A DNA stretch of 64,000 nt from a virus. The notes beneath the pieces are model-generated. The model had not been told where the DNA came from. It saw only the letters and a list, made by a program, of their open reading frames with translations, and searched no databases. Position numbers and translations under genes: made by a program. Shown here in pieces: positions 20,340-62,963 of the stretch. Location: the IMG/VR virus record IMGVR_UViG_3300042988_001550; one strand, 5' to 3'. The first letter of the stretch is position 1, and each line of letters opens with the position of its first letter.

Positions 20340-20419
20340 TTTCTCGGTTTCTTACTAACAGAGCAAAAAAACAATGTGACAGTAATAAAAGGGTGGGAGA
20401 TTTCTCCCCCACCCCCTAT

Positions 20420-20807
20420 TGGTGACTTCGCTGGGATTTGAACCCAGGACCAACTGGTTAAACGTACCACTACAGCTTTCGCTGCCATACCAGACGCCAC
20501 AATCGTTAAACGCCCGCTGTTTGGTGGTCTGGACTATGCCTTTATCCAGGAGTCCGAGACGATGCTACGGAGCTGGATAGGTGATTATAGTCTCTACACG
20601 TCCTCACACGGCTTAGCGCCGAATTGTGACTGTACATACGATTACAGCCCTAGCAAGTTTCGCTCGGCGTTAGGGGTAGGTTCGAATGCCCCCTCTTTTA
20701 AGAGAGCCCTACTACCCATTCACCGAATTTACACCGTTTCACTGCACCATTACTGATACAGTGGCCCTTATTGAGCCAGTTGCTCTACCAGACTGAGCTA
20801 CGAAGTC
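20420..20807 (-). tRNA. tRNA-Lys(UUU) interrupted by a 311-nt group I intron (5' exon 20774..20807, 3' exon 20420..20462)
   Basis: The spliced exons give a canonical 77-nt cloverleaf: GACTTCG/CGAAGTC, GCTC/GAGC, ACTGG/CCAGT, CTGGG/CCCAG, loop CTTTTAA, and an encoded CCA. Confidence 0.75.
20463..20773 (-). other. group I intron within the tRNA-Lys anticodon loop (after U33)
   Basis: P1 pairs the exon end TGGCT with the internal guide GGCCA, including the U.G pair at the splice site. The intron ends in G. R-like (TAGAGACTATAA) and S-like (AAGGCATAGTCC) elements supply the P7 pairing GACTA/TAGTC. Confidence 0.7.
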
Positions 20808-21207: not shown

Positions 21208-21413
21208 ACTGTCCTCCTGAGGACATCTTTAGCATCCTCTAGCGCACGGATAGCTGTTCCCAGATCTTCTTCAGCCTCACAGGCATCGTTAGTTAGCTCT
21301 TCAGCCAACTCGACGAGTTTGTTCAGCTCATGCTGCTTATCTTGCAGCTGCTTTACGAGCTTCTCCAGCTTTTGGATCACCCGATCCTTGGCGTTTTTTT
21401 CTTTCTTGACCAT
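21204..21413 (-). CDS. small coiled-coil protein, 69 aa
   Basis: Lys/Glu-rich heptad sequence KLEKLVKQLQDKQHELNKLVELAEEL. Confidence 0.45.
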   Translation of the reverse strand: MVKKEKNAKDRVIQKLEKLVKQLQDKQHELNKLVELAEELTNDACEAEEDLGTAIRALEDAKDVLRRTV

Positions 21414-21430
21414 GTACTCCCTGTGGTTGG

Positions 21431-21452
21431 TGGTACCCCCGGCAGGATTCGA
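21431..21452 (-). pseudogene. 3' fragment of the same tRNA type (half T-loop, acceptor 3' strand, CCA)
   Basis: TCGAATCCTGCCGGGGGTACCA. The acceptor CGGGGGT is complementary, with a G.U pair, to the GCCCCCG of the 5' fragment. Confidence 0.5.
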
Positions 21453-21460
21453 GGGTAGTG

Positions 21461-21537
21461 TGGTGCGCCAGGTAGGACTCGAACCTACAACTTACCGGGT
21501 AGAAACCGGTGTGTCTATCCAATTGACTTACTGGCGC
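21461..21537 (-). tRNA. tRNA-Arg(UCU)
   Basis: GCGCCAG/CTGGCGC, ACCGG/CCGGT with loop TTTCTAC, GTAGG-TTCGAGT-CCTAC, and an encoded CCA. The D-stem is weak. Confidence 0.7.
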
Positions 21538-21539
21538 GG

Positions 21540-21956
21540 TTATGGAGCGAGTCGGTAATCAGATGCAAAACGCACCCCTACCAACTGCTTATTTCTAGGA
21601 GGCCTAGTTCTGAGTGTGACGGACTTTTCTACATCGTCCTTACCAACATAGTAGACCTCTTTTGTATTTGGACAGTAGATGGCAATCACGTCATACTCCG
21701 CCTTATCCATTGGAGTTATGTGCGTGCCGTGTCTATCATTCCAACATGAACGGAGATTGACGGTGATTGCGCCCTTTCTATCCACCTCGCGGTACTTAAC
21801 CTGAATTCTTGAGAATGCCTGACCGTCCCAAGAAACCAAATCAAATGTCTGAAATTCAGATAGAGGCACGAGCACAATCCGCCCCTGCTCAGCCAGATCT
21901 GCCGCAACCTTCATTACGCCCAGGTCGCCTTTAGTTTTAGTGTGATGATGCTTCAT
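21540..21956 (-). CDS. PD-(D/E)XK nuclease-like protein (Hjc-type resolvase or homing-endonuclease-like)
   Basis: The core GRIVLVPLSEF...FDLVSWDG...SRIQVKY fits a D...(E/Q)VK nuclease pattern. It sits between a tRNA 5' fragment and tRNA-Arg. Confidence 0.45.
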   Translation of the reverse strand: MKHHHTKTKGDLGVMKVAADLAEQGRIVLVPLSEFQTFDLVSWDGQAFSRIQVKYREVDRKGAITVNLRSCWNDRHGTHITPMDKAEYDVIAIYCPNTKEVYYVGKDDVEKSVTLRTRPPRNKQLVGVRFASDYRLAP

Positions 21957-21985
21957 GTGTAAAGCATAGCGACACCAGCAGATTA

Positions 21986-22021
21986 GGCAACCGTTGCTCT
22001 ATCCAGCTGAGCTACGGGGGC
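21986..22021 (-). pseudogene. 5' fragment of an Arg-type tRNA (acceptor, D-arm and half the anticodon arm)
   Basis: GCCCCCG-TA-GCTC-AGCTGGATA-GAGC-A-ACGGT-TGCC is a perfect tRNA 5' half. The matching 3' end sits at 21431..21452, with no anticodon 3' stem, variable loop or T-stem 5' strand between them. Confidence 0.55.
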
Positions 22022-22029
22022 ATTGTTAG

Positions 22030-22812
22030 TTAATGATCCGCAAACTGCGGATCATTATTTTGAAGACCTGCCTTACGCAGTTCTTTGGTGTTCAGTTGCT
22101 TACCAGGAGTGACATCGCGCTCTTCTCTGAAGAAGCGGTGCATTCTGGTATAGTGCCAATTTCCGTCCGCATCCTGCATATAAGACGAGTAATCGACCTC
22201 ATCGTATGCAACCGTTCTGGTCACGATGACAGCTCGGAACCAGCAACCGTTGCGGTACAGGAGATCGAGGCACTTGTTGTCTCTATAGGCCACGTCCGCG
22301 TCATCGAGCCGGATCTGACCTTTGTACTGATCTCCGCGCCACTTCATGTATGTACGGCGACTCTTCTGAAGGATACCACAAGCATCCACATAGAATCGCT
22401 CACCGGACACGTAGTACCACCTTGCCATCTCTTTGACGAGCAGGTGGCGGTAATCAGTTTCCACGCGACCCGTGAGGTAATGGAGCAGCCAACGACCTGA
22501 CGGCGATCTATAGTCGTACAGCCGACGCAGCTCGGAGTAAACCGCATCCCACGGTCTTCCAACATGGGCCTGGAGAAACTTCTCCAAAGGAGATATGCTC
22601 CAGAAAGGGCTCCGGCGGTCCAAGCGACCGTCAACGAAGATCATCGTTCGCTCCGGCAGGCTATCCTCGGGCAGGTGCTGGAGGTTACCGCGATTGATTC
22701 TACCACGGAACTTCGACCGCGACCTTCTACCCCTCGAACGACCGCGTTCGAGGATATCCTTATCAAGTCTCTTTGTGTCTCGCATCTGGCTTTCGTGTTT
22801 AGTGGTAAACAA
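22030..22812 (-). CDS. hypothetical protein, about 251 to 260 aa
   Basis: Long ORF. The track uses a TTG start; an ATG start at 22785 is an alternative. Confidence 0.55.
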   Translation of the reverse strand: MFTTKHESQMRDTKRLDKDILERGRSRGRRSRSKFRGRINRGNLQHLPEDSLPERTMIFVDGRLDRRSPFWSISPLEKFLQAHVGRPWDAVYSELRRLYDYRSPSGRWLLHYLTGRVETDYRHLLVKEMARWYYVSGERFYVDACGILQKSRRTYMKWRGDQYKGQIRLDDADVAYRDNKCLDLLYRNGCWFRAVIVTRTVAYDEVDYSSYMQDADGNWHYTRMHRFFREERDVTPGKQLNTKELRKAGLQNNDPQFADH

Positions 22813-22895: not shown

Positions 22896-23387
22896 TCACT
22901 TATTGTGCGGGTTTACTTTTGACTTCCAGCGTTTGCCTTGAGAGACTCTGCCGAAATCGATGCAAACCATCTTGCCGTTTATCGTACCGAGGTTGGCGTG
23001 GTGCAGGTCCCATGTATTCAGTTTAGCTTCCCGGATCTTATCCAGAAACGCCTCTGTGGGCGCACGTCTACCAACATTCTGAGCAACCTGCGTGAAGTAG
23101 CCGTAGACCTTGGTCCGATTAAGACCATCAAATCCACGCTCACCGTACGGTACAAAAAGGTGGAAGCGTTGCCCGACTGCTGGAGCTAGCTTCTTCTTGT
23201 GACCGTAGTATTGCCCATAGAACGAATGATCCCGCTCCTGCTTAGTTGGGAACAGTTTGATACCTGTCGAGTCGCTAATCCGGATGAACCCACTCTCCAC
23301 TCCAGTGGACATCTTGGATCCCCCCAATAGCGAGGACATTATCAGCAATTTGTTGTGCTTCGTCATCCGAAGCGATGCGATTGTCAT
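22896..23387 (-). CDS. small protein-kinase-like protein
   Basis: DLHHANLG (catalytic-loop-like HxDxxxxN) and VCIDFG (DFG). The N-terminus is probably shorter than the track shows, because it overlaps the upstream gene. Confidence 0.4.
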   Translation of the reverse strand: MTIASLRMTKHNKLLIMSSLLGGSKMSTGVESGFIRISDSTGIKLFPTKQERDHSFYGQYYGHKKKLAPAVGQRFHLFVPYGERGFDGLNRTKVYGYFTQVAQNVGRRAPTEAFLDKIREAKLNTWDLHHANLGTINGKMVCIDFGRVSQGKRWKSKVNPHNK

Positions 23388-23823
23388 TGACTTGTGTTGG
23401 CCAGTAGTAAGGAATGTCTGGTCCTTCTGTCCAACCGAATCTTCCGTAATATAGCGGGTCCTTCCTTAACAGGTTAGACCTATGTGATGCGTGAAAACGC
23501 TCGTTCCTGAACCAAGGAGGACACTCCATTAGTATTGGAGCTGGGGTCAGTGGCATCCTATTACGGCGACCACGCCTCTCCCATTCCCGTATGGACTCAT
23601 TGTAGTAGACGGCCAACATACGCTCATAACCTTGCCACATCAGCCTGGCTGGATGGTTTACCCATCCACGGCGAGAACGAGGTACGGTGCCGTCTACTTT
23701 CGGTAAATCTACGCCCAAACTGCGAAGAAGCTGTCCGGCCTCGATTCTCTGCTTACCTAGCCGCCTATTGTCTAGACACTGCAATGACAGGCGAATATCT
23801 GGGTAAGGGAGAAAGGTCTGCAC
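23275..23823 (-). CDS. hypothetical protein, 182 aa (weak resemblance to pyrimidine-dimer glycosylase N-termini)
   Basis: MQTFLPYPD...LDNRRLGKQRIEAGQLL has a T4 EndoV-like pattern. This is low-confidence recall. Confidence 0.5.
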   Translation of the reverse strand: MQTFLPYPDIRLSLQCLDNRRLGKQRIEAGQLLRSLGVDLPKVDGTVPRSRRGWVNHPARLMWQGYERMLAVYYNESIREWERRGRRNRMPLTPAPILMECPPWFRNERFHASHRSNLLRKDPLYYGRFGWTEGPDIPYYWPTQVNDNRIASDDEAQQIADNVLAIGGIQDVHWSGEWVHPD

Positions 23824-24677
23824 TACTTGTTGGGCATCGCCATGTTGAGCATGAGGCCGCTACCGTCGGTCATGAAGGTCGGCAGCCTGCCATCCCATTT
23901 CTGGAGGTACTCGTACGGGATGAGTGCCGGATTGTTTTCCAGAGCTCGCGCACGCTGCTCCAGTTCGAAGGAACGGGCCTCAGCAATCGTTCTGATTGAG
24001 ATAGCTTCCTGCTCCGCAGACTGCCGCTTCGCCGTAGCGATTTCGACCATCTGTTGGGCTTCAAGACGCTGTCTCTCCAGAATCGCGCGCTGCTGCTCGA
24101 CTTCCTGCTCAGCCTTCTTCTTCTGAACGATGGCGATCTGAACAGCCTCGGGAGGCGTCAGGTCTTTCGACAATACGCGCTCGATAGTAGCATGCTTACC
24201 CGCGTACTCTTGAAGCTGGTTCATGATGGCCAGCTGGAAAGCCTCTTGGCCCTCCTGCTTGAAGAAGTCTTCGCTAGCCTTGATTGTCTTGCTAGCCTCT
24301 CTACATGACGAGCGGAATCCCTGGACGATGACCTTGTCCTTCAGCTCCTGCATCCCACCAATCTCCAGGATGATCTCGTGGACATTAGCTAGGTTCGGGC
24401 GCCACTGGACAGAGAAATCACCGACGATTCTCTGCTGATCCTGAGCGAACAGCGACACGTCCTCCAGATCTTCACTTTGGAGGCGCCCGTCGAATTCAAC
24501 CCAGTCATAGAACGGGTTGGTCCACGCCGGTTCCGTCAGCGTTTCCTTCTGGAGTTCACCGAACAGCTTGGCCACCTTGACGTGACCAGGCTCGACGGTC
24601 TCCCACGCGTTGGCAGCAAACGCGATGCTGATGACCGCCACAATGGCTGCCACAACTAGTCCTACGATCTTTCCCAT
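23823..24677 (-). CDS. SPFH/band-7 (stomatin/prohibitin/HflC-like) membrane protein
   Basis: N-terminal TM segment, then an SPFH core (GHVKVAKLFGELQKETLTEPAWTNPFYDWVEFD...RIVGDFSVQWRP) and a long Glu/Gln-rich coiled coil. Confidence 0.7.
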   Translation of the reverse strand: MGKIVGLVVAAIVAVISIAFAANAWETVEPGHVKVAKLFGELQKETLTEPAWTNPFYDWVEFDGRLQSEDLEDVSLFAQDQQRIVGDFSVQWRPNLANVHEIILEIGGMQELKDKVIVQGFRSSCREASKTIKASEDFFKQEGQEAFQLAIMNQLQEYAGKHATIERVLSKDLTPPEAVQIAIVQKKKAEQEVEQQRAILERQRLEAQQMVEIATAKRQSAEQEAISIRTIAEARSFELEQRARALENNPALIPYEYLQKWDGRLPTFMTDGSGLMLNMAMPNK

Positions 24678-35842: not shown

Positions 35843-37816
35843 ATGGCCGTAGTAGAAAATCCCAATAGATTCAGCCTTCCGGTAGAGACGACTATTCGTC
35901 AGCTGCTGCTGGAGAAGCACCCCAAGCTAAACACAGCGCCGGGCTCGGCCATTTATGATCTAATCATAACACCTGCCGCTATCATCCAGCAGCAGATGCG
36001 CGACCGCATGCGTGTAATCCAGCGCAACCAGTCAATCGCTAACTTCGCTACGATGCTCCCAGAGGAAATGGATCGTCTGGCATCTAACTTCTTCGTCACC
36101 AGAAGAAGCGGAAGTAAGGCTACTGGACAGCAGCGAGTCTATTTCTCTACGCTACAGAACGTGACGATTTCCACCAGCGCGCAGTTCACGGACGAGACCG
36201 GCCTAACGTTCAATCCGTCACAGAACGTCTTCGTTTCCGCAGCAACCCTGGCGCTGAACAACGTGCCAGAGACCGGCGAGTACTACGTAGATGTCCCGAT
36301 AGTGTCCGAAGAGGTAGGAGAGAACTACAGACTCAAGGCAGGACAGATTGTTAGAGTCTCGGGAATTTCTGGAGCCTCTAGAACGATCAACCTATACGAC
36401 ATGAGCGGTGGCTCGTATCCGGAATCTAATAGCGAGCTCTACGTCAGAATCAAGAAGTCGTTGGCATCCAGGGACACTGTCAAAGCAGACAGCATTCGCT
36501 CACTGATCCTGGACAACTTCCCGTCGATCAAAGACGTGATTGTGCAAGGGTACGGCGACACACTGATGACAAGAGATGTCGCCAGCGTCGTGATGTCTGT
36601 TGATCGGATGTTTGAAGGATCTTTCGCTCAAAAGACTAACCTACCGCTCAATGCTAACGGGGACGTTGTGTGGACAGACGATTCTGGTGAAGTGATCGTA
36701 GCACCTATCGGCGGATACGTCGGAGCGATCTACGACCTCACCGGTAAGGACTTTAACAACCTTCGTATATCACTCGACGGTCGAGCATACGAGAACATCT
36801 CAATCCAGCCAGGGTTCAAGGTTCGTTTCCTAGATGACGCAGACTCGGACAGTGGTAAGTACTTCTTGGTCACCAAAGTAGAGGAGGTGCCTGTAGAACC
36901 AGGCGGAGATCCTATCAAGGTGATTAGACTAGACAGACCACTAACGTCTCTGACATCCGCCAGCACCGCCGCTGACGGTGCGGAATACACCATCTACGGC
37001 CACGTCAATACAAACACTTTCCACATCGGCGGGAAGGTGGACGTGTACATTAAGTCGGTTGAGGACCAGACGAAGTCAGTTGTTATCGGATCACTCCCGG
37101 CTACGCACGGCGACGCTATCTGCGAAGTACCGCTAGACTCGTCGTTCATTAGTGAGACCGGTCAGAACTACTTTGAACAAGGTATCGGCTTTGATAAGCC
37201 GGTGATCACGATTGTCAAGGTTGAGGAGATCGATCCGGTCGAGAACGATAGCGTGGTGAGAACGCTGATTCCAGATGTACACTACCGCGTCATCCGCAAA
37301 GAAATGCGCGGACGGTTTACTACCGCAGTATCAGATGTTCTGCGAATTGAAGGGACAGACACGTTCGCAGAGTCGGGGATCACTATCCCGACCTTCACTG
37401 GGGCACGGATCAAGGTCACTTACGTGACTAACCCGGACATCAACCTTATTCAGGAGTACATCAATCTTCCCACCAACAGGGACATTACTGGTGACACACT
37501 CGTGCTGCCGCCAGAAGTGGTTCAGTTGAACGTGACAATGTCATACAAAGGATCTAGATCCGTTAATGAGCTGTCAGAGCTAGTATCCCGATTCATTCAA
37601 AGTAAGGGATTCGCTCCGACTATCAGCGTGAACGAGTTGCTAACTGTTCTCTCATATTTCGGCGTAACGGACGTTACATTGCCGGTACTGTTCACCGCTA
37701 TCAAAGACAACGGCGACGGTACGTATACAGTCACCAATAGTGAAGACCGTATTCAGCTAGAAAGCACGCAAGTGTTTAAACCGGTTGCACAGTTAGCAAT
37801 CACTAAGACAGCCTGA
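35843..37816 (+). CDS. putative baseplate/tail structural protein, 657 aa
   Basis: Its position immediately upstream of the giant fiber-like ORF, with ATGA coupling, suggests a baseplate wedge protein. Confidence 0.55.
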   Translation: MAVVENPNRFSLPVETTIRQLLLEKHPKLNTAPGSAIYDLIITPAAIIQQQMRDRMRVIQRNQSIANFATMLPEEMDRLASNFFVTRRSGSKATGQQRVYFSTLQNVTISTSAQFTDETGLTFNPSQNVFVSAATLALNNVPETGEYYVDVPIVSEEVGENYRLKAGQIVRVSGISGASRTINLYDMSGGSYPESNSELYVRIKKSLASRDTVKADSIRSLILDNFPSIKDVIVQGYGDTLMTRDVASVVMSVDRMFEGSFAQKTNLPLNANGDVVWTDDSGEVIVAPIGGYVGAIYDLTGKDFNNLRISLDGRAYENISIQPGFKVRFLDDADSDSGKYFLVTKVEEVPVEPGGDPIKVIRLDRPLTSLTSASTAADGAEYTIYGHVNTNTFHIGGKVDVYIKSVEDQTKSVVIGSLPATHGDAICEVPLDSSFISETGQNYFEQGIGFDKPVITIVKVEEIDPVENDSVVRTLIPDVHYRVIRKEMRGRFTTAVSDVLRIEGTDTFAESGITIPTFTGARIKVTYVTNPDINLIQEYINLPTNRDITGDTLVLPPEVVQLNVTMSYKGSRSVNELSELVSRFIQSKGFAPTISVNELLTVLSYFGVTDVTLPVLFTAIKDNGDGTYTVTNSEDRIQLESTQVFKPVAQLAITKTA

Positions 37817-40800
37817 TGAGCACGAACAAGTTCGATCCGACGCCGTTATTCGACGCGCTCCCGTCCTTTTGGAAGGATTACTACAAGGACAAGGATGTTC
37901 TATCGACTGTGTATGAGGCATTGCTTCGTATTCAGGAGATCGACTACAATCGACTGTTCACAGTAGATGATTCAAAAACGCTGTCGTCTGTCCCAGTACT
38001 GACTCGATACCCCGTTGTCTACGATCAACTGAATGATTGGGAAACAACTGGTCAGAAGCACGCACACACAAAGATCAGCGTAGCCTTCGATCCGACACTG
38101 GTTACGCCCTTTGACGCGACCACACAGTACTATAGAATCCGCTTCCCAGACACGATCTTCAAGTACGATTCCCAGCTCTACTTAGATGGCCGAGCAATCC
38201 CGGCATCCTTCTACACGAAGGTTTTCGAGCCGTACTATTCTGGAGAGTTCACAGACGGGGAAACAGTGGGAACAACTGTTTACCTGCACGCGCAGCGCCT
38301 AGCACAATTGTTCGCAAAGCCGCTGTCAACTGAAGACTATGAGCTGATCACAGAAGATCCCGACCAGTTCGATAACTACGGAAATGTGTCCGAAGACCCG
38401 GAAGCGTTCGCAGACTACGGCAATCTCGGGTGGAGCGCTATAGAAGCTGTAACAACAGCGACAATGTATGCGTTCAAGTCTGTTCTCCCACTGAAAGCCG
38501 TTACAGACGGCAGCACTTCTAGCTTTGAGCTTGATCTGTCCCCTCAGACGTTATCCACGGATGAGTCTACGGTAGTTGTAGAGAGCGTGGACGTGACTGG
38601 CCGTGTGGCCGTCTCGTATGATTCGGCGTATACCACGGTAACTCCGGTAGGCAGCTTCTCGTGGCAGACTGGCCAGACGTTCAAAGTGACTTGGCAGGAC
38701 GGAACCATCCAGCAGGTTAGCGCCGCCACTGGCCTTCCGATCTATCTAACCAAACTTGATCCGATAGCATCGGTCCAACTTCTAACAAACTTCCAGATCT
38801 ACCCGTCAGTAACGACGGTAGATATCAACGGGGTTTCGGTCGGAAACAACCAGCTGTACCCTGGAACGATCGTTCGAGTTGTGGACAGCGTCGGTACCCA
38901 AAGCGCCGTAATCACTGACGCAACTAACCGGGTCACGTTCGAAAGACCGATCGACACAAACACCGCCAAGGTGTTTTTCCACGGAATCGACCTGCTCTCT
39001 GTAGATCTGACCGAGACGGCTCTCGACTTCAACACGCCACCGAACAAGTCAGTAACACTGCGGATCGATGGTGTGATCTCGAACGATCACCAGCACGTAA
39101 CTGAAACATTTGATATCGAGGTTATCACCCGGAATATCGTCCTAGCGAACACTCCAGCGACCGGTGCGATGACCGGTAACGAGTCTGAATTCCTTCCGTG
39201 CAGGGTGTTTAAGGACGGTCAGCTGCTACTGGCCGGAACCGACTATTCGCTGGTCGGATCGATCCTTATTTTTGAAGAGGATTTGCTGCCTCCGTGCAAA
39301 GTCTCCGTGTACTACGAGATCAGCGGTGAGGTTGCGCATACGCACTACCACCAGGTTTTCCAGAACCTGGCGTCCAATAACCGACTAACCATTGATAGAG
39401 AGGTATCTGCCGATGATACGTTCGAACTATACTACGACTCCCTGCTTAATACACACCAGAGTCAGCTTGATCTGGTCGGCGGCAGAAGCATCACTCTTGA
39501 CAATGTCTTCCCCGAAAACATCACCATTGTTTTCCACGGTATTCAGCGCGGTTGGGCATATCGGCATGTTATTGCCGACCGCATGGATGCGCGATACGGG
39601 TATAGAGGACACGTCAAATCAATTGGCTTTATCCAAGACGGCCTTATTACGGCTTCCGCAACGCTCTCGTCGCAAGACGGGGACATTGCTGTAGTTGAGG
39701 AAAACGGCGATACAGTCCTCTACTCGAACACCAAAGTAATAGATGCGTGGATGTTCGATGTCGATGTAGACGAGCAGCTTATCAGCAATGTGTGGGGGGC
39801 TCTAGTAGATAACGTAGAAGCCTCCACAGATGACCAAGCTGTTCGTATTACGAGCCTCCTTGCCGCCGCTAGATCTCCAGCGTTTGTCGCTAACATGGAG
39901 AACTTCGGATCAATTGTACTAGGGTCCAGGTTTCTCGAAGAAGACGGCGTCTCTCTAGGAATCCGTACAGACGATAACGGAGACCGGGTTGTATCTATCC
40001 GTCCTACCGATACCCAGAGTGACAACTTCGACGTCCAGCTGATCGATGGCGCCGAGGTCCGCATAACGGACGGAAGCGTTCTCCCGCGCCTGTTCGCTGT
40101 CAATAAACTGCTCTCGGTTATTGACAAAGACCTGTCATCTGTTCCTTGGCTCGCCTTCATGGCTGAGTCATTGTCTAGCGACTTCAGGTTTGCTAAGAGA
40201 CTCGACGCAAAGACGTCTAAGAAGCTGACTAGTGACAACGGCCAGTTCGATCAGGTTACCGGAGTCCTAACGGACTATTCGATCAACTTCTATGAAGAAG
40301 AAGTTCGCGTAGGTGACCAGATCCGCCTCGAATTCGCTATCTTCGACTTCACTCTACCCGATAACCCTCTTGAAGAGAGAGATCCGGTTGTAGCGAACGT
40401 TCTGGAAGTAATCAATCCTAACCAGATACGTATCAAGTCCCCAGAGATTGTCGACATCGCCGGATTCGGAGAAAACTCTTACGGCTCCGGACCGTTCGGT
40501 GGCGGGATCTATACGCCGTCTCTCAGATCCTATACCGTCTGGACACGTGTAACTAGGAAGCTAGACAGCTTCTATAAGCTCGACACCGCCCTAGCATCCG
40601 CCCAAGCGTTTGTGTCTGGTGAGGACGTTCAGCTGACGAACGAGGAGCTAGCTAAGCTCTTAAGACACCACGTCTTCGTTCTGAAGCTCAATTGGGATCG
40701 TATGGTATCAGCTGAGCAGCTGGCGACGTTGCAGCAGCTGATCAGAACCCTAAAGCCCGCTAAGACGACGGCTCTGGTGTATACCGAACTGGAAGATGGT

Positions 40801-43800
40801 AATGGTATTGCAGAGACGCTGGGATCTGAGCTAACAGAAGGTTCGCCTGAGCTAAGTGTTGCAGGTGATCGAGTAGCAGATGAGTTCTACACTGGAACCA
40901 GTTATCTTGGTGCGGATTACAGAACGCAGTCTTCCACAAACACGCTGCTCTACGATCCCGCCTCGTTCACTGTGGGACCGGCAGCATTCGCCCTTACTAA
41001 CGAACCCGACCTAGTTCCTAAGGACTCGCAGTACTACCTGACAGCTTCCAGAAACAGCATGATTGATGCTGGATCTGCCTGGGCAACTCTATACTCAGGT
41101 CAGCACGGTCTGGAAGGATTACTCCTCAAATCGACTCTAGTCACTGGGGTAGCCTCTTATGAGGTGTACCCCGTGTTCGGGTACCGCCCCAACGGGTTTG
41201 CTATCGAGTTCAACGGACAGCGCCGCCTGAACGTACCGTGGGTCTATCTAGCTGACGACTTCACGTTCCGCACATGGATGACGGTTCCCAGCGGCTCAAT
41301 TGGCGCTGGAGAAAGCCCGCAACTTCTAGCTCTTGGAAGCACAGGATTCCGTATCGGTCTTGGGTATGTGTCTGCATCGACATATGAAGTGGCGATCTAC
41401 CCGAGCCCGTCGCAGAGAATTGTTGTTGCTGAGTTCTCACCAGACACTGAGACATTCCTTTCAGTGACCTATCGCGAAGATGACAGTCAGTTTGAGACGA
41501 TCATCGCTGGTGGTAGGAACGGAAGCGGCACTACTTCTACGGATGCCGGCGTCACCGCGTCGTTCACTGGAACGCTGTTCCTTGGTGCTGGAAATACTGA
41601 TCCGATTCAAGACTCTGGTATCACCGCCACACTCGACGAGACAGTTCTGCTAGGCAGAGCAGCGTCTCCTGAGGAAGTTGCGTCGTGGTACTCTACCCGA
41701 TATTGGAGCGGTCCGCTGGGCGTCAGCGCTAACGGCTCTCCGCTATCCGAGCTGGGCGCGCAAATCGTCCTTCACTTCGATAAGGAAGACGCCCTTAGCA
41801 CCACGGTGTTCGATTACTCTGGAGAAGGTAATAACCTCTCGAAAGAGTCTGACGATGTTGATGACCTGGACAGCGACTGGTTCGTTTCTGGAATCATCGA
41901 CACGCCGCTGCCGTCTGAGAAAGACTACTTCCAGCTCGATCGTCGCGGCTACTACATCACGGATGGTAGAAGAGTAACCATTCCTGTCCTCGACGAGGAT
42001 GGTGTTCCGACTACGGTGGAATACACCGCCCGTTCTGGTGAAATCGCATACACCGCTCCCAATGTCGCTTACTACTTCACAGGGAGTAGCTGGCTCAAGG
42101 TAGATGCTTTCCCGTCCACCAGCTCGTCAGCCGTCAGCGTTAACCGCTGGACCGGACCTTATCAAGGGTTCTTTGAGAACGGGTACATTGACCCCAACAA
42201 CCAGGTTCGTTCTAGCGTCATACGGTTTGATGCAACACTCGGAACTGATCCCGCGTTCAAGTTCTCAGCTAAAAACAATGCCGCTATCAGCTCGATCAAG
42301 ATCGGCGGTACCGAGATCCTCGAAGTAGACACGAAAGCCGACATCGTCCAGCAACGTTGGGAAGTCGGTAACTCTTTCGTTCTTGCGGAAGCTGGTGCAG
42401 ATAACCAATCACCGAGAGAACAGTCGCTCTCCAGATACGTGTCGTCTACCTTCACCACAACTGGTGGAGTGGTTAGATCTTATCCAGCGTTCTCGCAGCT
42501 ATACACAGAGGTAAGCCCACCGCTAGAAGCGTCAGGCGACCTCTTCACGAAGCGGGTGAAGCTCGGCGTTGTAAACAACAATCACATTCTAGAGATAGAA
42601 TCATCGCTACAGCCGTATGCCTCGCTAAACAACGCTTACGTCGGCTGGGTCTATCAGCTGAGCCTATCTGATGCGCTGACCGAGGCGTTCTCTTTCCAGG
42701 TAGGGACTCAAGGTGCTGGTTACGGCCAGCCGATCTATCTTGGTAAGGCTGAGGAATCGGATAATCAGATCGAGACCACCTTTAAGGGCGGGGTCATTCT
42801 GACGAGTGTAGACAGAACGCTGGCAATCGGTATCTACCACCACGGACCGAGCAGACCGAACTACCGTATCGCCACTGATATCGAGTATCTGAGTACCCCG
42901 AACAGGGTTCTGCTGTCGTCTACGGAATACATCAGAAACTCTGGCGGCGTGGCCGGAGAGATGAGCAAGAAGCGCTATATCTGCGCCGGTAACTTTGTCG
43001 AAGTGGTATCGGCATTCGCGGAGCTGTATGCGCACCTGGAAGGACTTCCGGCTCCGACCTTCTCCTTCCCGGCGATAGCAATGCAGGCGGCTATTACCTC
43101 GCCGCTTAACCAGAACATCCTACTGAACCAGACAGTTGATTTTAACGTTCGCGCCATCAGTGCCTACGGAACGATCGACGCGCTGTACGCGGAGGATGTG
43201 ACAGCGACGGTTACCGACATTACAACCGGAACAGCTACGGACTACGTGGAGACGTTCGTTAACGGCGTGGCCGACTTCTCGGCTATACCGATGACGCAGA
43301 ACGGCTCTAAGTCAGTGTTCCTCACCAGCGGTTCGCTGCAGCCGGCTACTCTTTCACTAGATGTGTGGTGGCCTAAGCCTATCATCACTAGTATCACGCC
43401 CACTACAAGTGTTACCGGTACAGCGGACACTACCGTTCGGATCTTTGGCTCGCAGTTCTACTCTCCTCACGTAGCACAATGGCGGGCACCTGGATCAAAT
43501 ACATGGGTTGACCAAACAACCACATACGTCAGTCCTGGAGAGGTGCAGTTCTCTCTGCTGACCAGCATGAAGACGGTCGGTCGTCACGTGATTCGTGTAT
43601 CGACGCCGAGACTGCTGGGCGCTATATCTAACTCGGTGTTCCTACAGGTAACTGCGTCCGCGCCGGTATGGTCTCCGCACTACCTGTCGATCGACACCTA
43701 TCCGTCGACAACACTAATCAATTCCAGTAATCAGTACGCTGTGTCTCTAAGACACAGCCCGTCTGGTAACCTGGCCACAATCAACAGCGGTCGCGTAACA

Positions 43801-46800
43801 CTGACTGCTCAGCCGACTGGCTCGTTTACTGGAACCATGAGTGCGTGGGCATCGCCGGTTAACGGTGTCGCTCTGATTAACGGCTCAGTCAACAAGGCAG
43901 GTATCTACGACCTCCGCGCGGTCCACTCGCCACTGTCCGGTGGAGCAGCTAGAACGGACGTAGAGTATGCTGTACTTACTGTACAGAACCCGGACCCGGT
44001 TCTTAGCCGAGTGTCTCCGCCGTGGTTCTCACCTGAAGCGGCGTCTTTTGACGAGTTCCGGCTATTCGGCGCGAACTTTATCCAGAACGACAGTGTTGTA
44101 GAGTTCTGCCTTACTTCGCCGAACCACCCGAGCTTCTCTGGTTGGACAACCAGAACGACGGTATTTGATACCAGCTCTCAGATAATCGGTTATCTCACGA
44201 CCGGTGACATTGCATACGACTCGACAGAGAGATACAGATATGCGAGAGTGTCTACACGATACTCTGTGTCTGGCCTACCTTCAGCGTCAGTAAGCATTCT
44301 CGTGTCCCCCACCGCCGGAGTTCCGCCGGTCCCGACAGTATACAGCCCGTTCTTCCTAGGTGAAGTCGTCGAAGTCGGGTCGCTCACGTACAACGATCAG
44401 TTCGTTAACGAGACGGTCGACGTTCTAGTTCCTGTACTACACTCACTCATTCCGCTAGTATCGGCGTCAACAGCAACCGGATTGGTTAGAGTGGTGGCTT
44501 CCCCAGAGCTTCCTGAGTACACTGGCTCAGGCTCGGATAGCGCTGTTCCGCAAGTCGGCAACCAGATCGCCTTCCTATCTCCTCAGATATCGTCGTACGG
44601 TAGATATCGTCTATCCGCGACATACTCCCCCGGCGTCGGTGAGACAGCGGTTGTCGGTTCAGCCAGTGATTACTTCAACGTCTATCTAAGACCCGCCACG
44701 ATTAGCCGCGTGTCCCCGGTCATAACGAGCCCGCTCGGAACGCAGACGATCACGATCACTGGCGCAGGCTTCAACGTATCGAACAAGGTTTACCTGACGA
44801 ACGCCACCGCTAGCACGACTGTAACAGCTAGCCCGTCCTTCACGTCGGCTCAGAGCATTTCGTTCCAGCTATCCCCAGGAAACTACACAGGACAGCAGGA
44901 TCTTCTGCAGATCCAGGTAGGTACGCCGACTTGGAGCTACGCACTATCAAACAGTAGTTACCTAACACTGTATCCGACACCTAGCACCTACACGGTGTCT
45001 CTAAACCCAGACGTAAACAATCCGCCGCCTATCCTGACACAGACGATCGTTGTCGGAAACACGCTACCGACGATCGACGCACATGTCTTCGATAACGCCG
45101 GACAGCCTGCAACGTCTGTAACTGGCTTAGTGTCCCTCGCCATCACCAAGACCACAGGCGGTGTGGCTTACAGCGGAGCAGATTCGCCGGTCAACGGCTA
45201 CGCCTCCTTCTCTGGTATCACCGCTCCGGCGGCAGGTATCTACAACATCTCGGCTGAGTTCTCTCCGACCGGCGGAACTCCTGTAACAGCAGACGAGATC
45301 CAGTTCTACTCGCTAAACCCCGTCGGATACGCTACAAGCGTAAGCCCATCCACATTCGCGGCCAACGGTGTTCCGAGAACGATTAAGGTGTACGGCCAGA
45401 ACTTCCTTTCTGGAAGCACCGCTGTCCTGGTTAACGGAAGCGAGTCGGCTGCGTTTGTGCAGACAGTACACAGCCCGAAGGCGCTCACAGCAACACTAAG
45501 TACGTTCGCTTCTAACAGCGTCGGTACTCATCAGATCTCTATCAAGACGCAGTTTGCTGCTCCTGGCGGGCAGCCAGCTTATAGTGGTGTTTCTGTTCCT
45601 CTAACCATCACAGCTAACCCGTCGGCTCCAGCCGCTGGATCTGAGGAGAACCTGCCTGCTACCATCATCGTCTCTCCTCTAGGATATGCGAGAGTACGTT
45701 CACCTTCCGGACCAATCACGCCGATCTGGACACCTGTAGCTGTTCCAGGACAGGATCGCGGTAGCGATAGCCTGTGGCAGGCGTGCATCAATCGCGTTGG
45801 CCAGTACAACACGGCCAATCCTCCCGGTACTATCCAACCTACAGCGACCAGCCCCGGCGCTGCGGACGTGGTTGAAGTCACAGCCGGTATGTACTCTCAC
45901 GTCAAGTTCTACACCGGGAATGCAAGCGGTCCCCACGAGACAACAAACGCACAGGCTAGAGGACTCAGCCTAAGACAGCCCCTTATCATTCGTGCACGCA
46001 AGACTAACGGTGTTGCCGAGCCTGTAGTTATTCGCCCCTTCTCGTTCATCGACCCAGCAGACACGACATACGCGTGCATAACCTTCCAGGCAACACCAAC
46101 GTACAAGCCTGGCTTCATGCACTTCTACGATATTGGTTTCATGGGACGTCACTACGGTGTCGAGCATGTTCGATCAACGAACATGACCGGCTCGGTGGAC
46201 TACTACTATGAAGATCATCAGTTCCATCGTTGCCGTATCCTCGGCACGTATGACCATCGAACAATAGCGTTGGCGCCGTATAGGGTGACTCAATCAACCC
46301 AAAGTAATGTCCTCACTAATCAGAAGCACTGGAATTACCTAGGTCAGGAACTAATTGCTCCATCAACTAGCCCGTCCAATAGCTTCTTATGGAGAATGGA
46401 TATTCCAGCAGACCAGGTACATCGGGCGCTACATAGAAACCGTTATTGCGTCAGTGTGCCGGTCACCAGTCCGGCAGATCTGAATCCATTGCCCACCTGC
46501 CTAGGGGTTGTAATCGGCGCGGCACCGTCTAGTGAGTTTGTTTACACATCTAGCCAGAGCGTCTCGACTAGCAAGCTAATTCACCTCGGCCTTGATAAGG
46601 GAACCGGCGGCTCACCGCACTATGTTGAGCTGACATTGATGGCAGACGGTGAAAACGGCGGCGCAGGTGTAGCGAATTCCCGGTCAAATGTCTCTGTATG
46701 GAGCGGTTCTTGGCAGCTTCTCACTGTTACAAACGGAGTGGTTCCTGTCGGCACCGTTTACGACAATACTAAGTACCCCTTGACTGGTAGAGTTATTGGC

Positions 46801-57541: not shown

Positions 57542-57570
57542 GATGGAGCCGACGATGGGATTTGAACCCA
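57542..57570 (-). pseudogene. tRNA 3'-end fragment (T-arm, acceptor 3' strand, CCA) with no matching 5' half
   Basis: ATGGG-TTCAAAT-CCCAT-CGTCGGC-T-CCA. I could not find the complementary acceptor strand within 120 nt. Confidence 0.4.
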
Positions 57571-58375
57571 TAACCCCTTCATTACCTGCCCACTTTGAAC
57601 TTTCGTTCGACTACATTACACTAGTCTAGTGGGATGGACTTTCTCTTCACCCTCGTCTTTACGTTAGGGTGCGCCGTGTAAAGTCTCTACACTTGCCCGG
57701 TTCTTTTAGGAACCTGCTAGCTCGGGATTGCCATTTTAAAGGTTTCCCCGACTTAGCGGCGTCCACTTTATAGGTTTCCCTAGAAAGGTCCGTAATCATG
57801 ACTTACTGCTGCGCTGAGTGTCAAACAACGTTCTCTCGAAAGGACAAAGCACGTTCTGTAAACGCATTCTGTTCTCGATCTTGTGCCGCCAGCTATAACA
57901 ACAGGAAGAAACCTAAGAGGGCGCGAAGCCGTCGGGATTCTAGTTGTGTTAGTTGCGGAAAAAGTACCCATAACCGTAGATTCTGCGATTTGGTGTGCTT
58001 CCACAGACTTAGGGCCGATACAAAGATCGCCAACTGGTTGTCAGGCCACGAGACGCGCGTCACCTCTCATCGAAGAGACGCTATCCGCTCCTGGCTGTTG
58101 AAGGACCAGCTAGAGAAGTGTGCCTTGTGCGCCCAATCAGGAAATTGGAACGGCAAGCCACTGCTTTTTGTTTTGGACCATATCAATGGAGACCACACCG
58201 ATAACAGCAGAACCAATCTACGCCTTATCTGTCATAACTGTGACTCACAGTTACCTACGTACAAAGGCAGAAATCGCGGTTTCGGGCGATACATCAGAAG
58301 ACAACGATACGCAGACGGTAAATCGTTCTAACAAATGAAGAGCTCTGCCAATTGAGCTACATCGGCAATTGAAAG

Positions 58376-60060: not shown

Positions 60061-60173
60061 TGGTCGGCCCGGAGGGACTCGAACCCCCAACCCTCCGCAT
60101 ATCAGACGGCGCCCAGTTGTTACACCAGGGGCGGATCATAAATCCACTGCTCTACCATTGAGACTACGGGCCG
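60061..60173 (-). tRNA. tRNA-like gene with anticodon UAU (Ile-type) and a ~41-nt insertion between the anticodon stem and T-arm
   Basis: CGGCCCG/CGGGCCG, GTGGA/TCCGC with loop TTTATGA, GGGGG-TTCGAGT-CCCTC, A73, and CCA. It is 113 nt long. Confidence 0.4.
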
Positions 60174-61376: not shown

Positions 61377-62963
61377 TTAGTCCTTGGCGAAATTGCTGAT
61401 GAGAGCCGGAGTCTCGGTATCGTACCCGACGATGTCCAGCTGGTGCGGGTCTTGAGGATCCGCGATGGTGAAGCCGGTAGCCGTCATGCCGACGACGATG
61501 GCCTTGGCGTTGGGGCGGTTGCGTTCCTTGCGGAATCGATTCAGCGCCTGGTACGGCTGCACGCCGCCGTTCGTCTCATTGTCAGTCATGATGACGAAGC
61601 AATCCACGTCACGCTTCTGGGAGGTCGCGTACGAGTAGGCCGCCGAGCAGTCGGTTGATCCGAAGTTGTTCATGACAACCTTGTGCATAGCAGTCGCCAG
61701 GGTATCGTTTGCATGGATACCCAGGTCCTTGATCGTGCTGGCGAAGCCAACGATCTCGTGGTAGGGCTCACGTCGAGCCAAAACCATTGCCAGGCACGCG
61801 GTACCCATCGCCGGGGTGAACCCAGGGAAGACGGAGCCCGCCGAGCCGTACCCACCACCAGCCATCGACCCCGAAACGTCAAGCGCCAGCAAGAAGTTCT
61901 TGTTGGACGGTTCGACGTTGTTGAAGGCGTGGTAGAACAGCGCTTCCGTGACATCGGTGATGGTGCTCACCGGGGTCCAAGACAGGCTGCCCTTGATGCC
62001 ATGACCCTGACGGTACGTGTAGTAGGCGGCCAGCGCCTGCATCGGATGGATACGCGACTTTTTGATCGCTTCCTTATCCGACAGCTTCTGCTGGACCAAC
62101 TTCGTAGCCGAGCTGAGAGGCTTCAGCAAGCCGTTCGCCGTCATGCGCGCCAGGTTGCGGGTTAGCGCATTCAGCGGCATGTTCGGCAGCAAGGCTTCCC
62201 AGATCTCCGGATTCCCCAGCTGCTCCGTCGGAATCATTTCCCAGGTGATCGACTTGTTGCGTCGAATCACAGCGAGGATACCATTCTTGTCCGCCTTGCT
62301 GATTTCCTCCAGATCCGCGACGATCTGAGGAATACCTTCAGCAATCACATTCTTGCACGCCCACTGGAACAGTGCCTGCTGTTCCTTGAGAAGCGGCTTC
62401 GGGTGAGCCATGCGCAGCACGTCACGATGCGTCCACCCGTTGCGGTTGCGGTACTTGGCCATCTGATAGGCGAGGTCGTCGCCCTTCTTGTTGATGTACC
62501 AATCACCAACCGTCGTGCAGAGCATACGCCCCCAGCCGCGCATGTTCTGGACCTCTTCCGTGAACTGGAACAGGTGGGTACCCGTCCGGATCACCTGATA
62601 GAAGACGGCCTTGGCAGCCACCTTCGTCGCGAGGTCCTTGCTGCTCATCGCCATTGCCAAAGCAAAAATTGCGGGGTCTTGCTTCGGCGCACGCCCACCG
62701 ACGCTGATGTCGCGGATGACACCAACCGTCTTGGGACCGTCAGCATTGAGGCAGCGGGTCACCACCTCAGCATTGTCCACAGTCAGCTTGCGCTCGGACA
62801 CGTAGTACGTGCCGCCGCTCGACCCGAGAATCAGAAATCGTTCCAACCGCTTCCAGTCGTCAGTCTGGAACACATACCCACCGGTGTTGTTCAGTACCTG
62901 GTCTGAACGTGTCTTCTCGTGCACCGGTGCAGGAGTGTTCAGGATCTTGCCGTAGTTCTTCAC
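61377..62963 (-). CDS. rsr: Ro60/Rsr ortholog (TROVE domain plus C-terminal vWA/MIDAS)
   Basis: N-terminus NNTGGYVFQTDDWKRLERFLILGSSGGTYYVSERKLTVDNAEVV matches Ro60. The C-terminus has LALDVSGSM...TDNETNG (MIDAS). GTG start follows an AGGAGGG ribosome-binding site. Confidence 0.8.
   Translation of the reverse strand: MKNYGKILNTPAPVHEKTRSDQVLNNTGGYVFQTDDWKRLERFLILGSSGGTYYVSERKLTVDNAEVVTRCLNADGPKTVGVIRDISVGGRAPKQDPAIFALAMAMSSKDLATKVAAKAVFYQVIRTGTHLFQFTEEVQNMRGWGRMLCTTVGDWYINKKGDDLAYQMAKYRNRNGWTHRDVLRMAHPKPLLKEQQALFQWACKNVIAEGIPQIVADLEEISKADKNGILAVIRRNKSITWEMIPTEQLGNPEIWEALLPNMPLNALTRNLARMTANGLLKPLSSATKLVQQKLSDKEAIKKSRIHPMQALAAYYTYRQGHGIKGSLSWTPVSTITDVTEALFYHAFNNVEPSNKNFLLALDVSGSMAGGGYGSAGSVFPGFTPAMGTACLAMVLARREPYHEIVGFASTIKDLGIHANDTLATAMHKVVMNNFGSTDCSAAYSYATSQKRDVDCFVIMTDNETNGGVQPYQALNRFRKERNRPNAKAIVVGMTATGFTIADPQDPHQLDIVGYDTETPALISNFAKD

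Follow-up and report, generated by a model that had tools for sequence, protein, structure and literature searches.

We found that a stretch of viral DNA of 64,000 nucleotides (nt), IMG/VR virus record IMGVR_UViG_3300042988_001550 (the whole of which is called the window here), carries a homing endonuclease gene and a complete tRNA-Arg(UCU) gene nested between two pieces of a second, broken transfer RNA (tRNA) gene. The locus is probably a homing cassette that disrupts its target tRNA gene and supplies a replacement for it, being made up of an intron-less PD-(D/E)XK nuclease and a tRNA-Arg(UCU). The cassette is likely to sit in the anticodon-loop region of a former tRNA-Arg(UCU) gene that belonged to a phage tRNA array. 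The comparisons behind these statements covered 50,697 phage records, IMG/VR and 5.8 billion proteins, and more than 548 metagenomic relatives of the nuclease were collected. In IMG/VR an alignment-based scan yielded 34 nuclease loci and a scan with the single protein yielded nothing. Numbers that begin with L denote the other contigs and loci with which the window was compared.

Anatomy of the nested locus

All parts of the locus lie on the minus strand. It begins with the outer 5' half (22021..21990), GCCCCCG-TA-GCTC-AGCTGGATA-GAGC-A-ACGGT, a perfect tRNA half that runs from the 5' strand of the acceptor stem through the D arm to the 5' strand of the anticodon stem. The seven nucleotides that follow, TGCCTAA (21989..21983), may be what is left of the outer anticodon loop, with mutations, or may already belong to the insert as its first bases. 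They agree with a UUUCUAA loop at five of seven positions, a degree of agreement whose chance is about 0.04, so the survival of a mutated loop is only suggestive; the left junction falls somewhere inside these 7 nt. A leader of 26 nt (21982..21957), with neither a Shine-Dalgarno sequence nor an intron core, runs to the start codon of the nuclease gene (21956..21540), an open reading frame (ORF) of 138 amino acids, and the inner tRNA-Arg(UCU) gene (21537..21461), with its CCA encoded, begins 2 nt past that ORF. At the right junction an 8-nt spacer, CACTACCC (21460..21453), leads to the outer 3' fragment of 22 nt (21452..21431), TCGAATCC-TGC-CGGGGGT-A-CCA, which holds the T loop from position 55, the 3' strands of the T stem and acceptor stem, A73 and CCA. 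The insert thus defined measures 533 bp (21985..21453, the left end give or take a few bases), and its part that is neither ORF nor tRNA amounts to 26-33 nt, 2 nt and 8 nt. A scan for promoters and terminators found none on the minus strand, which is the relevant one. A perfect 10-bp inverted repeat, ATGATCCGCA GTT TGCGGATCAT (22055..22030, minus strand), overlaps the stop codon of the upstream ORF of 260 amino acids, 9 nt before the broken tRNA, and is followed by no run of T.

The two outer fragments derive from one tRNA gene, because their acceptor strands pair (CGGGGGT of the 3' fragment with GCCCCCG at 22021..22015, seven of seven pairs with one G-U at 1-72) and because neither occurs by chance. 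Searched as a degenerate pattern, the 3' fragment is found once in the 64 kb and in none of 100 shuffles, the same is true of the 5' 26-mer with three mismatches allowed, and a tRNA profile detects the 5' half in nhmmer with an expectation value (E) of 9e-4; a chance origin of the two fragments is excluded. The outer tRNA lacks about 16 nt (positions 39-54), which would have made up the 3' side of the anticodon stem, the variable loop, the 5' side of the T stem and T54, and since these are gone the outer tRNA of the window appears to be a pseudogene. The first-pass annotation had placed all four pieces where we find them, on the same strand, and had recognised the flawless 5' half, the complementary 3' end and the absent strands. 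Its description holds, with the refinement that the broken tRNA itself most resembles a tRNA-Arg(UCU).

The outer gene was very probably a tRNA-Arg(UCU), an assignment that we base on features of the 3' fragment together with the link of the nuclease subfamily to tRNA-Arg(UCU). The 26-mer of the 5' half, GTAGCTCAGCTGGATAGAGCAACGGT, is present in intact tRNA-Arg(UCU) and tRNA-Thr(UGU) genes of IMG/VR viral contigs. The G1-U72 pair, A73 and the CCTGC T stem of the 3' fragment fit only the Arg(UCU) group (L037/L073, L101 and L018), and the nearest intact counterparts, L037/L073 and L101, have the 26-mer as well as G1-U72, A73 and a CCTG(C/T)C T stem. The uninterrupted outer gene may be reconstructed as GCCCCCGTAGCTCAGCTGGATAGAGCAACGGT-TTTCTAA-ACCGTAGGTCGCAGGT-TCGAATCCTGCCGGGGGTACCA.

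The inner tRNA-Arg(UCU) is intact and is the sole tRNA-Arg in the window. It scores 56.4 bits with the Rfam tRNA model (E 2.4e-11; threshold 29), ARAGORN calls it Arg(UCU), and it forms a cloverleaf with a standard anticodon loop, with one A-A mismatch in the D stem and a C at position 38. Its anticodon arm, ACCGG-UUUCUAC-CCGGU, is unlike the outer ACGGU stem and the D arms differ too. We presume that it is a replacement copy that travels with the nuclease.

The ORF is, on its profile match and its predicted fold, a PD-(D/E)XK homing endonuclease of the I-Ssp6803I family. It matches Pfam PF11645 (PDDEXK_5) with an E of 6.3e-33 and 114.1 bits against a curated cut-off of 26.1, and the match spans residues 4-136 and profile positions 1-137 of 138, which is the full length of the family. 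An AlphaFold model made with 17 relatives in the alignment has a predicted local distance difference test score (pLDDT) of 89.4. Foldseek searches with the model, a check that the first-pass annotation had proposed for its PD-(D/E)XK-like ORF, returned the chains of I-Ssp6803I (PDB 2OST) as the top structures (E 1e-10; template-modelling (TM) score 0.71-0.78), followed by archaeal Hjc resolvases. The residues E34, D39 and Q52-V53-K54 are invariant in the family and present in the ORF; D39 and Q52-V53-K54 are unchanged across 19 relatives and align with the YDLV...QVK active-site motif of 2OST. The gene is embedded in no intron or intein and so belongs to the free-standing type. By analogy with its relatives, the enzyme is predicted to cleave in the anticodon-loop region of tRNA-Arg(UCU).

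This anatomy bears on two explanations that do without homing. The first is a functional split tRNA: once the insert had been removed, the two outer halves would be put together, either in cis or in trans. The flawless 5' half, the paired acceptors and the encoded CCA would suit such a tRNA, as would the near-complete halves at L135 and L137, but in the window the anticodon stem has no 3' strand, the T stem has no 5' strand and the variable loop is absent, there is no group I core, a bulge-helix-bulge cannot form without the missing anticodon-stem strand, and the outer tRNAs of other loci carry disabling changes. We find this explanation extremely improbable, and a functional split or trans-spliced outer tRNA was rejected on the 16 missing nucleotides and the absence of a ribozyme. 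The second is an integrase-type duplication of an attachment (att) core, which the first-pass annotation had offered beside a mobile nuclease. Integrating elements often leave a duplicated tRNA 3' end beside an intact tRNA and the 22-nt piece could be an attR-like copy of that sort, but it is only 17/22 identical to the 3' end of the inner tRNA, it pairs with the upstream 5' half, a 5' half would not be expected, the insert is 533 bp long, and Pfam finds no integrase family in the neighbouring ORFs. The suggestion has next to no likelihood and was dropped, there being no exact direct repeat and no integrase in the flanking ORFs.

A group I intron at the locus was likewise rejected: there is no P3-P9 core, and the exons do not make a complete tRNA, about 16 nt being absent. 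A search of 21300..22200 with the Rfam model Intron_gpI gave no match at E up to 10, and the same search finds introns at 20773..20463 and 57809..57617. The first-pass annotation had described the locus as something other than a simple intron, and this is right: it lacks a group I core, and inside the insert the ORF is surrounded by only 26-33 nt and 2 nt of non-coding DNA.

Relatives of the nuclease and recurrence of the nested layout

Database relatives of the nuclease reach about 55-56% identity and are tied almost everywhere to tRNA-Arg(UCU) genes; in most of the 34 IMG/VR loci a tRNA-Arg(UCU) abuts the nuclease gene. On the whole, bacterial relatives lie in group I introns of the anticodon loop, an arrangement already known, and phage relatives make up cassettes that have no intron and combine the nuclease with a complete tRNA-Arg(UCU). 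By context the relatives form three classes. In the first the nuclease is borne by a group I intron and lies between two tRNA-Arg(UCU) halves with ribozyme segments around the ORF, the 5' exon ending in ...CUU and the last base of the intron being a G just before CUAA (L005-L009, L011, L146, L159, L283 and L286-L289). This intron-borne form accounts for no fewer than 70 of the 80 top-ranked metagenome relatives, which have it in the tRNA-Arg(UCU) gene of a bacterial tRNA-Pro / tRNA-Arg / tRNA-His operon. The second class has the nuclease 20-140 nt past the end of a complete tRNA-Arg(UCU); to it belong about 22 of the 34 IMG/VR loci and two isolates, Acinetobacter phage Herod and Synechococcus phage Sf-FR1. 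In the third a complete tRNA-Arg(UCU) starts 2-35 nt past the nuclease stop codon (the window, L010, L137, L152, L158 and L161). Bacteria have this last order at L346 and L337; there tRNA-Pro precedes the nuclease, and an intact tRNA-Arg(UCU) follows it at a distance of about 50 nt. A rough tree has intron-borne and cassette forms interspersed.

Several contigs show features of their own. L346 (1400..2060) and L337 (1..830) are metagenome contigs with a free-standing nuclease in the bacterial tRNA-Pro / tRNA-Arg / tRNA-His operon, and in L337 a direct repeat of the tRNA-Pro 3' end, CCCCCTGCCCCGACCACTATTT, brackets an insert of about 185 nt. At L284 (745..835) an odd tRNA-Arg(UCU)-like sequence lies upstream of a nuclease that is 52% identical to that of the window; it has an acceptor stem, the anticodon arm CCGAT-CTTCTAA-ATCGG and a T arm, with no recognisable D arm and a long extra region. 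The IMG/VR contigs L046 and L052 each carry several tRNA genes with anticodon-loop inserts of about 50-80 nt (Rfam tRNA matches of 123-151 nt), and in one gene that resembles tRNA-Arg(UCU), for example, CTTC is followed by an insert of 77 nt; these inserts are too short for a group I intron.

The nested layout of the window recurs in unrelated viral contigs. Some loci of the second and third classes are bracketed by both halves of another, outer tRNA, which were detected by a tRNA profile search. At L137 the order is that of the window, GCACTCATAGCTCAATTGGATAGAGCATCAGATT being followed by the nuclease, the tRNA-Arg(UCU) and ...GCTGAGGGTTCAAGGTTCGAGTCCTTGTGGGTGTACCA, and here the variable loop and the whole T arm are kept. 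At L129-L136 the outer 5' half ends in ...CTTCT and is separated by 13 nt from the inner tRNA-Arg(UCU), which in turn lies 67 nt ahead of the nuclease; the nuclease runs directly into TAA and the anticodon-stem 3' strand of the outer 3' half. Read from their sequences, the cassettes of L129-L136 and L137 visibly interrupt the anticodon loop of an outer tRNA-Arg(UCU), the situation seen in the window.

The cyanophage loci show the cassette as a discrete element. In L129, L132, L135, L136 and Sf-FR1 a cassette of 565 nt is 92-99.6% identical, the 300-nt flanks of these loci align at background level (56-61%) except in the near-duplicate pair L135/L136, and the outer halves around the cassette belong to different tRNA-Arg(UCU) genes that are 51-92% identical. 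Near-identity in unrelated contexts shows, as far as sequence comparison can, that this cassette moves as a unit. The cyanophage isolates S-RIM44 and S-H9-2 share the neighbouring genes and have an uninterrupted tRNA-Arg(UCU) and no nuclease; their anticodon arm, AACTGC-CTTCTAA-GCAGT, is the same as in the cassette loci, which places the cyanophage insertion between U36 and A37. Outer tRNAs are defective at several loci: in L129 the acceptor strands are unpaired, in L136 the D arm is disrupted and in L135 the T loop reads TGCAAAT, and in Sf-FR1 the outer 5' half has shrunk to 13 nt, ACAACTGCCTTCT, upstream of the inner tRNA-Arg. Decay of this kind is to be expected if the function has passed to the inner tRNA. 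The nuclease ORF of Sf-FR1 (L001, PV340855.1, 2834..3486) lacks its own stop codon and continues into tRNA-Val, and in cassettes of the Sf-FR1 type the inner tRNA is flanked on both sides by a 12-bp inverted repeat, CTTAGAACAACC / GGTTGTTCTAAG. Exact-pattern searches for unbroken counterparts of the outer tRNAs of L135 and L132 returned only tRNA-Arg genes of enterobacterial-type prophages or the same three contigs.

These loci support what the first-pass annotation had put forward as a mobile cassette or a free-standing homing endonuclease that carried tRNA-Arg along: the family of the nuclease, the recurring nested layout, the presence of the cassette in different outer tRNAs and the syntenic isolates that lack the nuclease all agree with it. 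They also allow two other histories to be weighed. In one, a nuclease-bearing group I intron in tRNA-Arg(UCU) would have lost its ribozyme core on the spot, and in compensation the phage lineage would have gained or kept another tRNA-Arg(UCU) beside the nuclease. Intron-borne relatives (49-56% identity) are as near to the window protein as any, they mix with cassette forms in the rough tree, the insert occupies the anticodon loop, where introns sit, and the phage of the window has related group I introns in tRNA-Lys and in another tRNA. We nonetheless consider such decay unlikely: 21985..21453 bears no trace of the conserved intron segments CCGAGGAAAC, GTAGAGACTA, ATAGTCCAGACC and GTAGTGGTAxG, two independent replacements would be needed, and the near-identical cyanophage unit in unrelated contexts shows that the unit moves.

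In the other history a free-standing nuclease lay between tandem tRNA-Arg genes, and deletions or inversions that had nothing to do with homing left two fragments of one of them. Phage tRNA arrays are prone to recombination, and most phage loci, like the bacterial cases L346 and L337, are free-standing without outer halves. Such rearrangement is nevertheless quite unlikely as the source of the window locus, in which fragments of one tRNA with pairing acceptors bracket the nuclease-tRNA unit exactly; a deletion cannot carry a 3' end past another gene, and the bracket recurs in L137 and, with the other gene order, in L129-L136. Intron decay and unrelated rearrangement each have a small probability, and they explain the recurring bracket less well than does a homing cassette.

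The case for mobility is, at the level of sequence, one that rests on the parallel loci and not on the lineage of the window itself. A megablast search with 3 kb of the window against the 50,697 phage records gave no match, and neither did a tblastn search with the 653-amino-acid ORF of the window. The upstream gene of 260 amino acids has no homologue in IMG/VR and finds only itself among the 5.8 billion proteins. The only other contigs with this nuclease, L003 and L004, are both 100% identical to the window. The phage appears to be unrelated to sequenced isolates, because no tested ORF matches the phage records.

Other tRNA genes and neighbouring features of the phage

The tRNA genes of this phage are a frequent target of homing elements, as two more of them have been invaded by group I introns. 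The first is a tRNA-Lys(UUU) gene (20807..20420, minus strand) that ARAGORN does not call. The gene is split after U33 by a group I intron of 311 nt (20773..20463) that contains no ORF. UGGCU at the end of the 5' exon is able to pair, through one U-G wobble, with GGCCA inside this intron, whose last base is G. Its score with Rfam Intron_gpI is only 20 bits (E 0.009), and it has core motifs in common with the nuclease-bearing tRNA-Arg introns. A hairpin and a run of T follow the tRNA-Lys(UUU) gene at about 20415..20385. The second interrupted gene, probably tRNA-Thr(UGU) (58366..57547, minus strand), has a group I intron of about 745 nt that matches Intron_gpI at 57809..57617 with 57.6 bits, above the gathering score. 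On the opposite strand this intron carries an HNH-like ORF of 177 amino acids (57798..58331, plus strand), whose Pfam HNH_3 match (E 9e-4) is below the cut-off.

A further tRNA-like gene of 110 nt (60173..60064, minus strand), again not called by ARAGORN, scores 44 bits with the Rfam tRNA model and has the anticodon loop UUUAUGA (perhaps Ile-UAU) and an additional arm of some 36 nt. On one side it has the transfer-messenger RNA gene and on the other the gene for a phage Ro60/TROVE protein (61377..62963, minus strand; Pfam TROVE E 7e-41, vWA_Ro60 E 3e-47), and a Y-RNA-like partner may be present near that gene. ARAGORN finds tRNA-Ile(UAU) genes of 91-93 nt in L007, L148 and L161. Elsewhere in the window, an ORF of 3764 amino acids (37816..49110, plus strand) adjoins a baseplate-J-like gene, and upstream of the nested locus (23275..24677, minus strand) are genes for a Band_7 protein and for a pyrimidine dimer glycosylase of the DenV type (Pfam Pyr_excise, E 7e-18).

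A proposed route of homing and its known parallels

We infer a route in which the nuclease would be made from the transcript of the tRNA cluster and, in a mixed infection, would cut an uninterrupted tRNA-Arg(UCU) gene in or near its anticodon loop, where the cut is placed because the intron-borne relatives are inserted there. The break would be repaired off the cassette-bearing genome, with the flanking tRNA halves serving as short, widely conserved homology arms, and the cassette would be copied in. Splitting the target tRNA would remove the cleavage site as well, and the decoding of AGA would be kept up by the tRNA-Arg(UCU) that accompanies the nuclease; this inner tRNA is presumably not cut because its anticodon arm and D arm differ from those of the target. 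The outer halves would then be free to decay. The nested form itself might have originated in the illegitimate capture of a free-standing nuclease-tRNA unit like that of L346, or in the loss of the ribozyme from an intron.

A number of points weigh against this account. Repair of a double-strand break between two tRNA-Arg genes would not by itself nest one inside the other, so a first illegitimate event must be assumed. The cleavage target given here, as for all family members associated with tRNA-Arg(UCU), is a predicted one. The 5' half taken alone fits tRNA-Thr(UGU) equally well. The junctions display no clear microhomology, and the account does not explain why 16 nt are missing or why the possible remnant of the loop has two aberrant bases. 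L137 is the only other locus with the nuclease-then-tRNA order and outer halves, and as its nuclease is only about 48% identical it gives no nucleotide-level border for the cassette in the lineage of the window. Since no phage relative was found in the collections searched, there is for the window locus neither an empty-site allele nor a second distinct copy. Even in the cyanophages, a global alignment of L129 with S-RIM44 is variable between the shared flanks, so that the two are syntenic and do not make a clean pair of filled and empty sites.

A broader idea, which we hold tentatively, is that cassettes of a nuclease and a tRNA-Arg(UCU) form a distinct class of self-complementing mobile elements. 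In such elements a nuclease-resistant gene copy would make the ribozyme dispensable, and the tRNA halves would act as portable arms with which the element moves from phage to phage, even where no other sequence is shared, and between bacteria and phages. On the usual view, homing endonucleases last inside essential or useful genes only if an intron or intein hides them, and are otherwise intergenic. The window and about ten parallel loci would represent a third solution, in which the target gene is broken and a spare copy is brought along. If this is true, the self-complementing cassette would be one cause of the common and mosaic occurrence of tRNA-Arg(UCU) in phage genomes. It would give tRNA genes a definite way of passing from one phage to an unrelated one and account for orphan tRNA halves in phage tRNA arrays, which annotation tools ignore. 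The nucleases are candidate tRNA-gene-specific enzymes whose target may be read from the broken halves. Phage genes of the PF11645 family should not be taken for defence genes by default; the copy in Sf-FR1 has been placed among defence-associated domains in the paper that describes this phage (PMC12284385).

The nuclease family and its occurrence in tRNA-Arg(UCU) introns are already known. A full-text search of the literature found no description of the intron-less form, in which a nuclease comes with a replacement tRNA and the target is left broken, although this is not proof of absence. The closest characterised enzyme, I-Ssp6803I, is the homing endonuclease of a group I intron in the anticodon loop of Synechocystis tRNA-fMet, in agreement with the Pfam description. 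Its target is reportedly the DNA of the anticodon stem-loop, in work ascribed to Bonocora and Shub in 2001 and Zhao et al. in 2007. I-Ssp6803I (2OST) and the nuclease of the window share PF11645, the fold (TM 0.78), the D...QxK motif, a similar length (151 and 138 amino acids, respectively) and the location of the gene in a tRNA anticodon-loop region. They are, however, only about 21-24% identical, and the host gene in the window is tRNA-Arg(UCU) and not tRNA-fMet. Unlike I-Ssp6803I, the nuclease of the window has no intron around it, the tRNA that it interrupts cannot be restored by splicing, and a complete second tRNA lies alongside.

Nearer in sequence are the group I introns with PD-(D/E)XK endonucleases that the legend to Fig. 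6 of PMC13011429 describes in tRNA-Arg(UCU) of Bacteroidota and Campylobacterota. Introns of this kind provide the closest protein relatives (46-56% identity) and have the same target gene and anticodon-loop region. They have an IC-type ribozyme core and intact exons and are inserted after U34, whereas the window has neither the core nor complete exons but does have a replacement tRNA.

Integrative elements that target tRNA genes and bring a replacement 3' end resemble the window in that the damage to a tRNA gene is offset by tRNA sequence brought along. Those elements work through an integrase and an exact att repeat, and the gene that they enter is itself restored; the window has a nuclease and a separate, complete tRNA, and its target stays broken. 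The tRNA clusters of phages also harbour free-standing homing endonucleases that spread by intronless homing, among them SegB and SegF of T4 and the F-Tfl enzymes of T5. SegB is described as a phage homing endonuclease in PMC13096335. As in the window, the genes for SegB, SegF and the F-Tfl enzymes lie outside introns in a phage tRNA region, and they spread with adjacent DNA that replaces the version in the recipient. They belong, however, to the GIY-YIG or HNH type, have intergenic positions and bring about conversion of homologous flanks, whereas in the window a PD-(D/E)XK nuclease and a whole tRNA gene are found inside the broken target.

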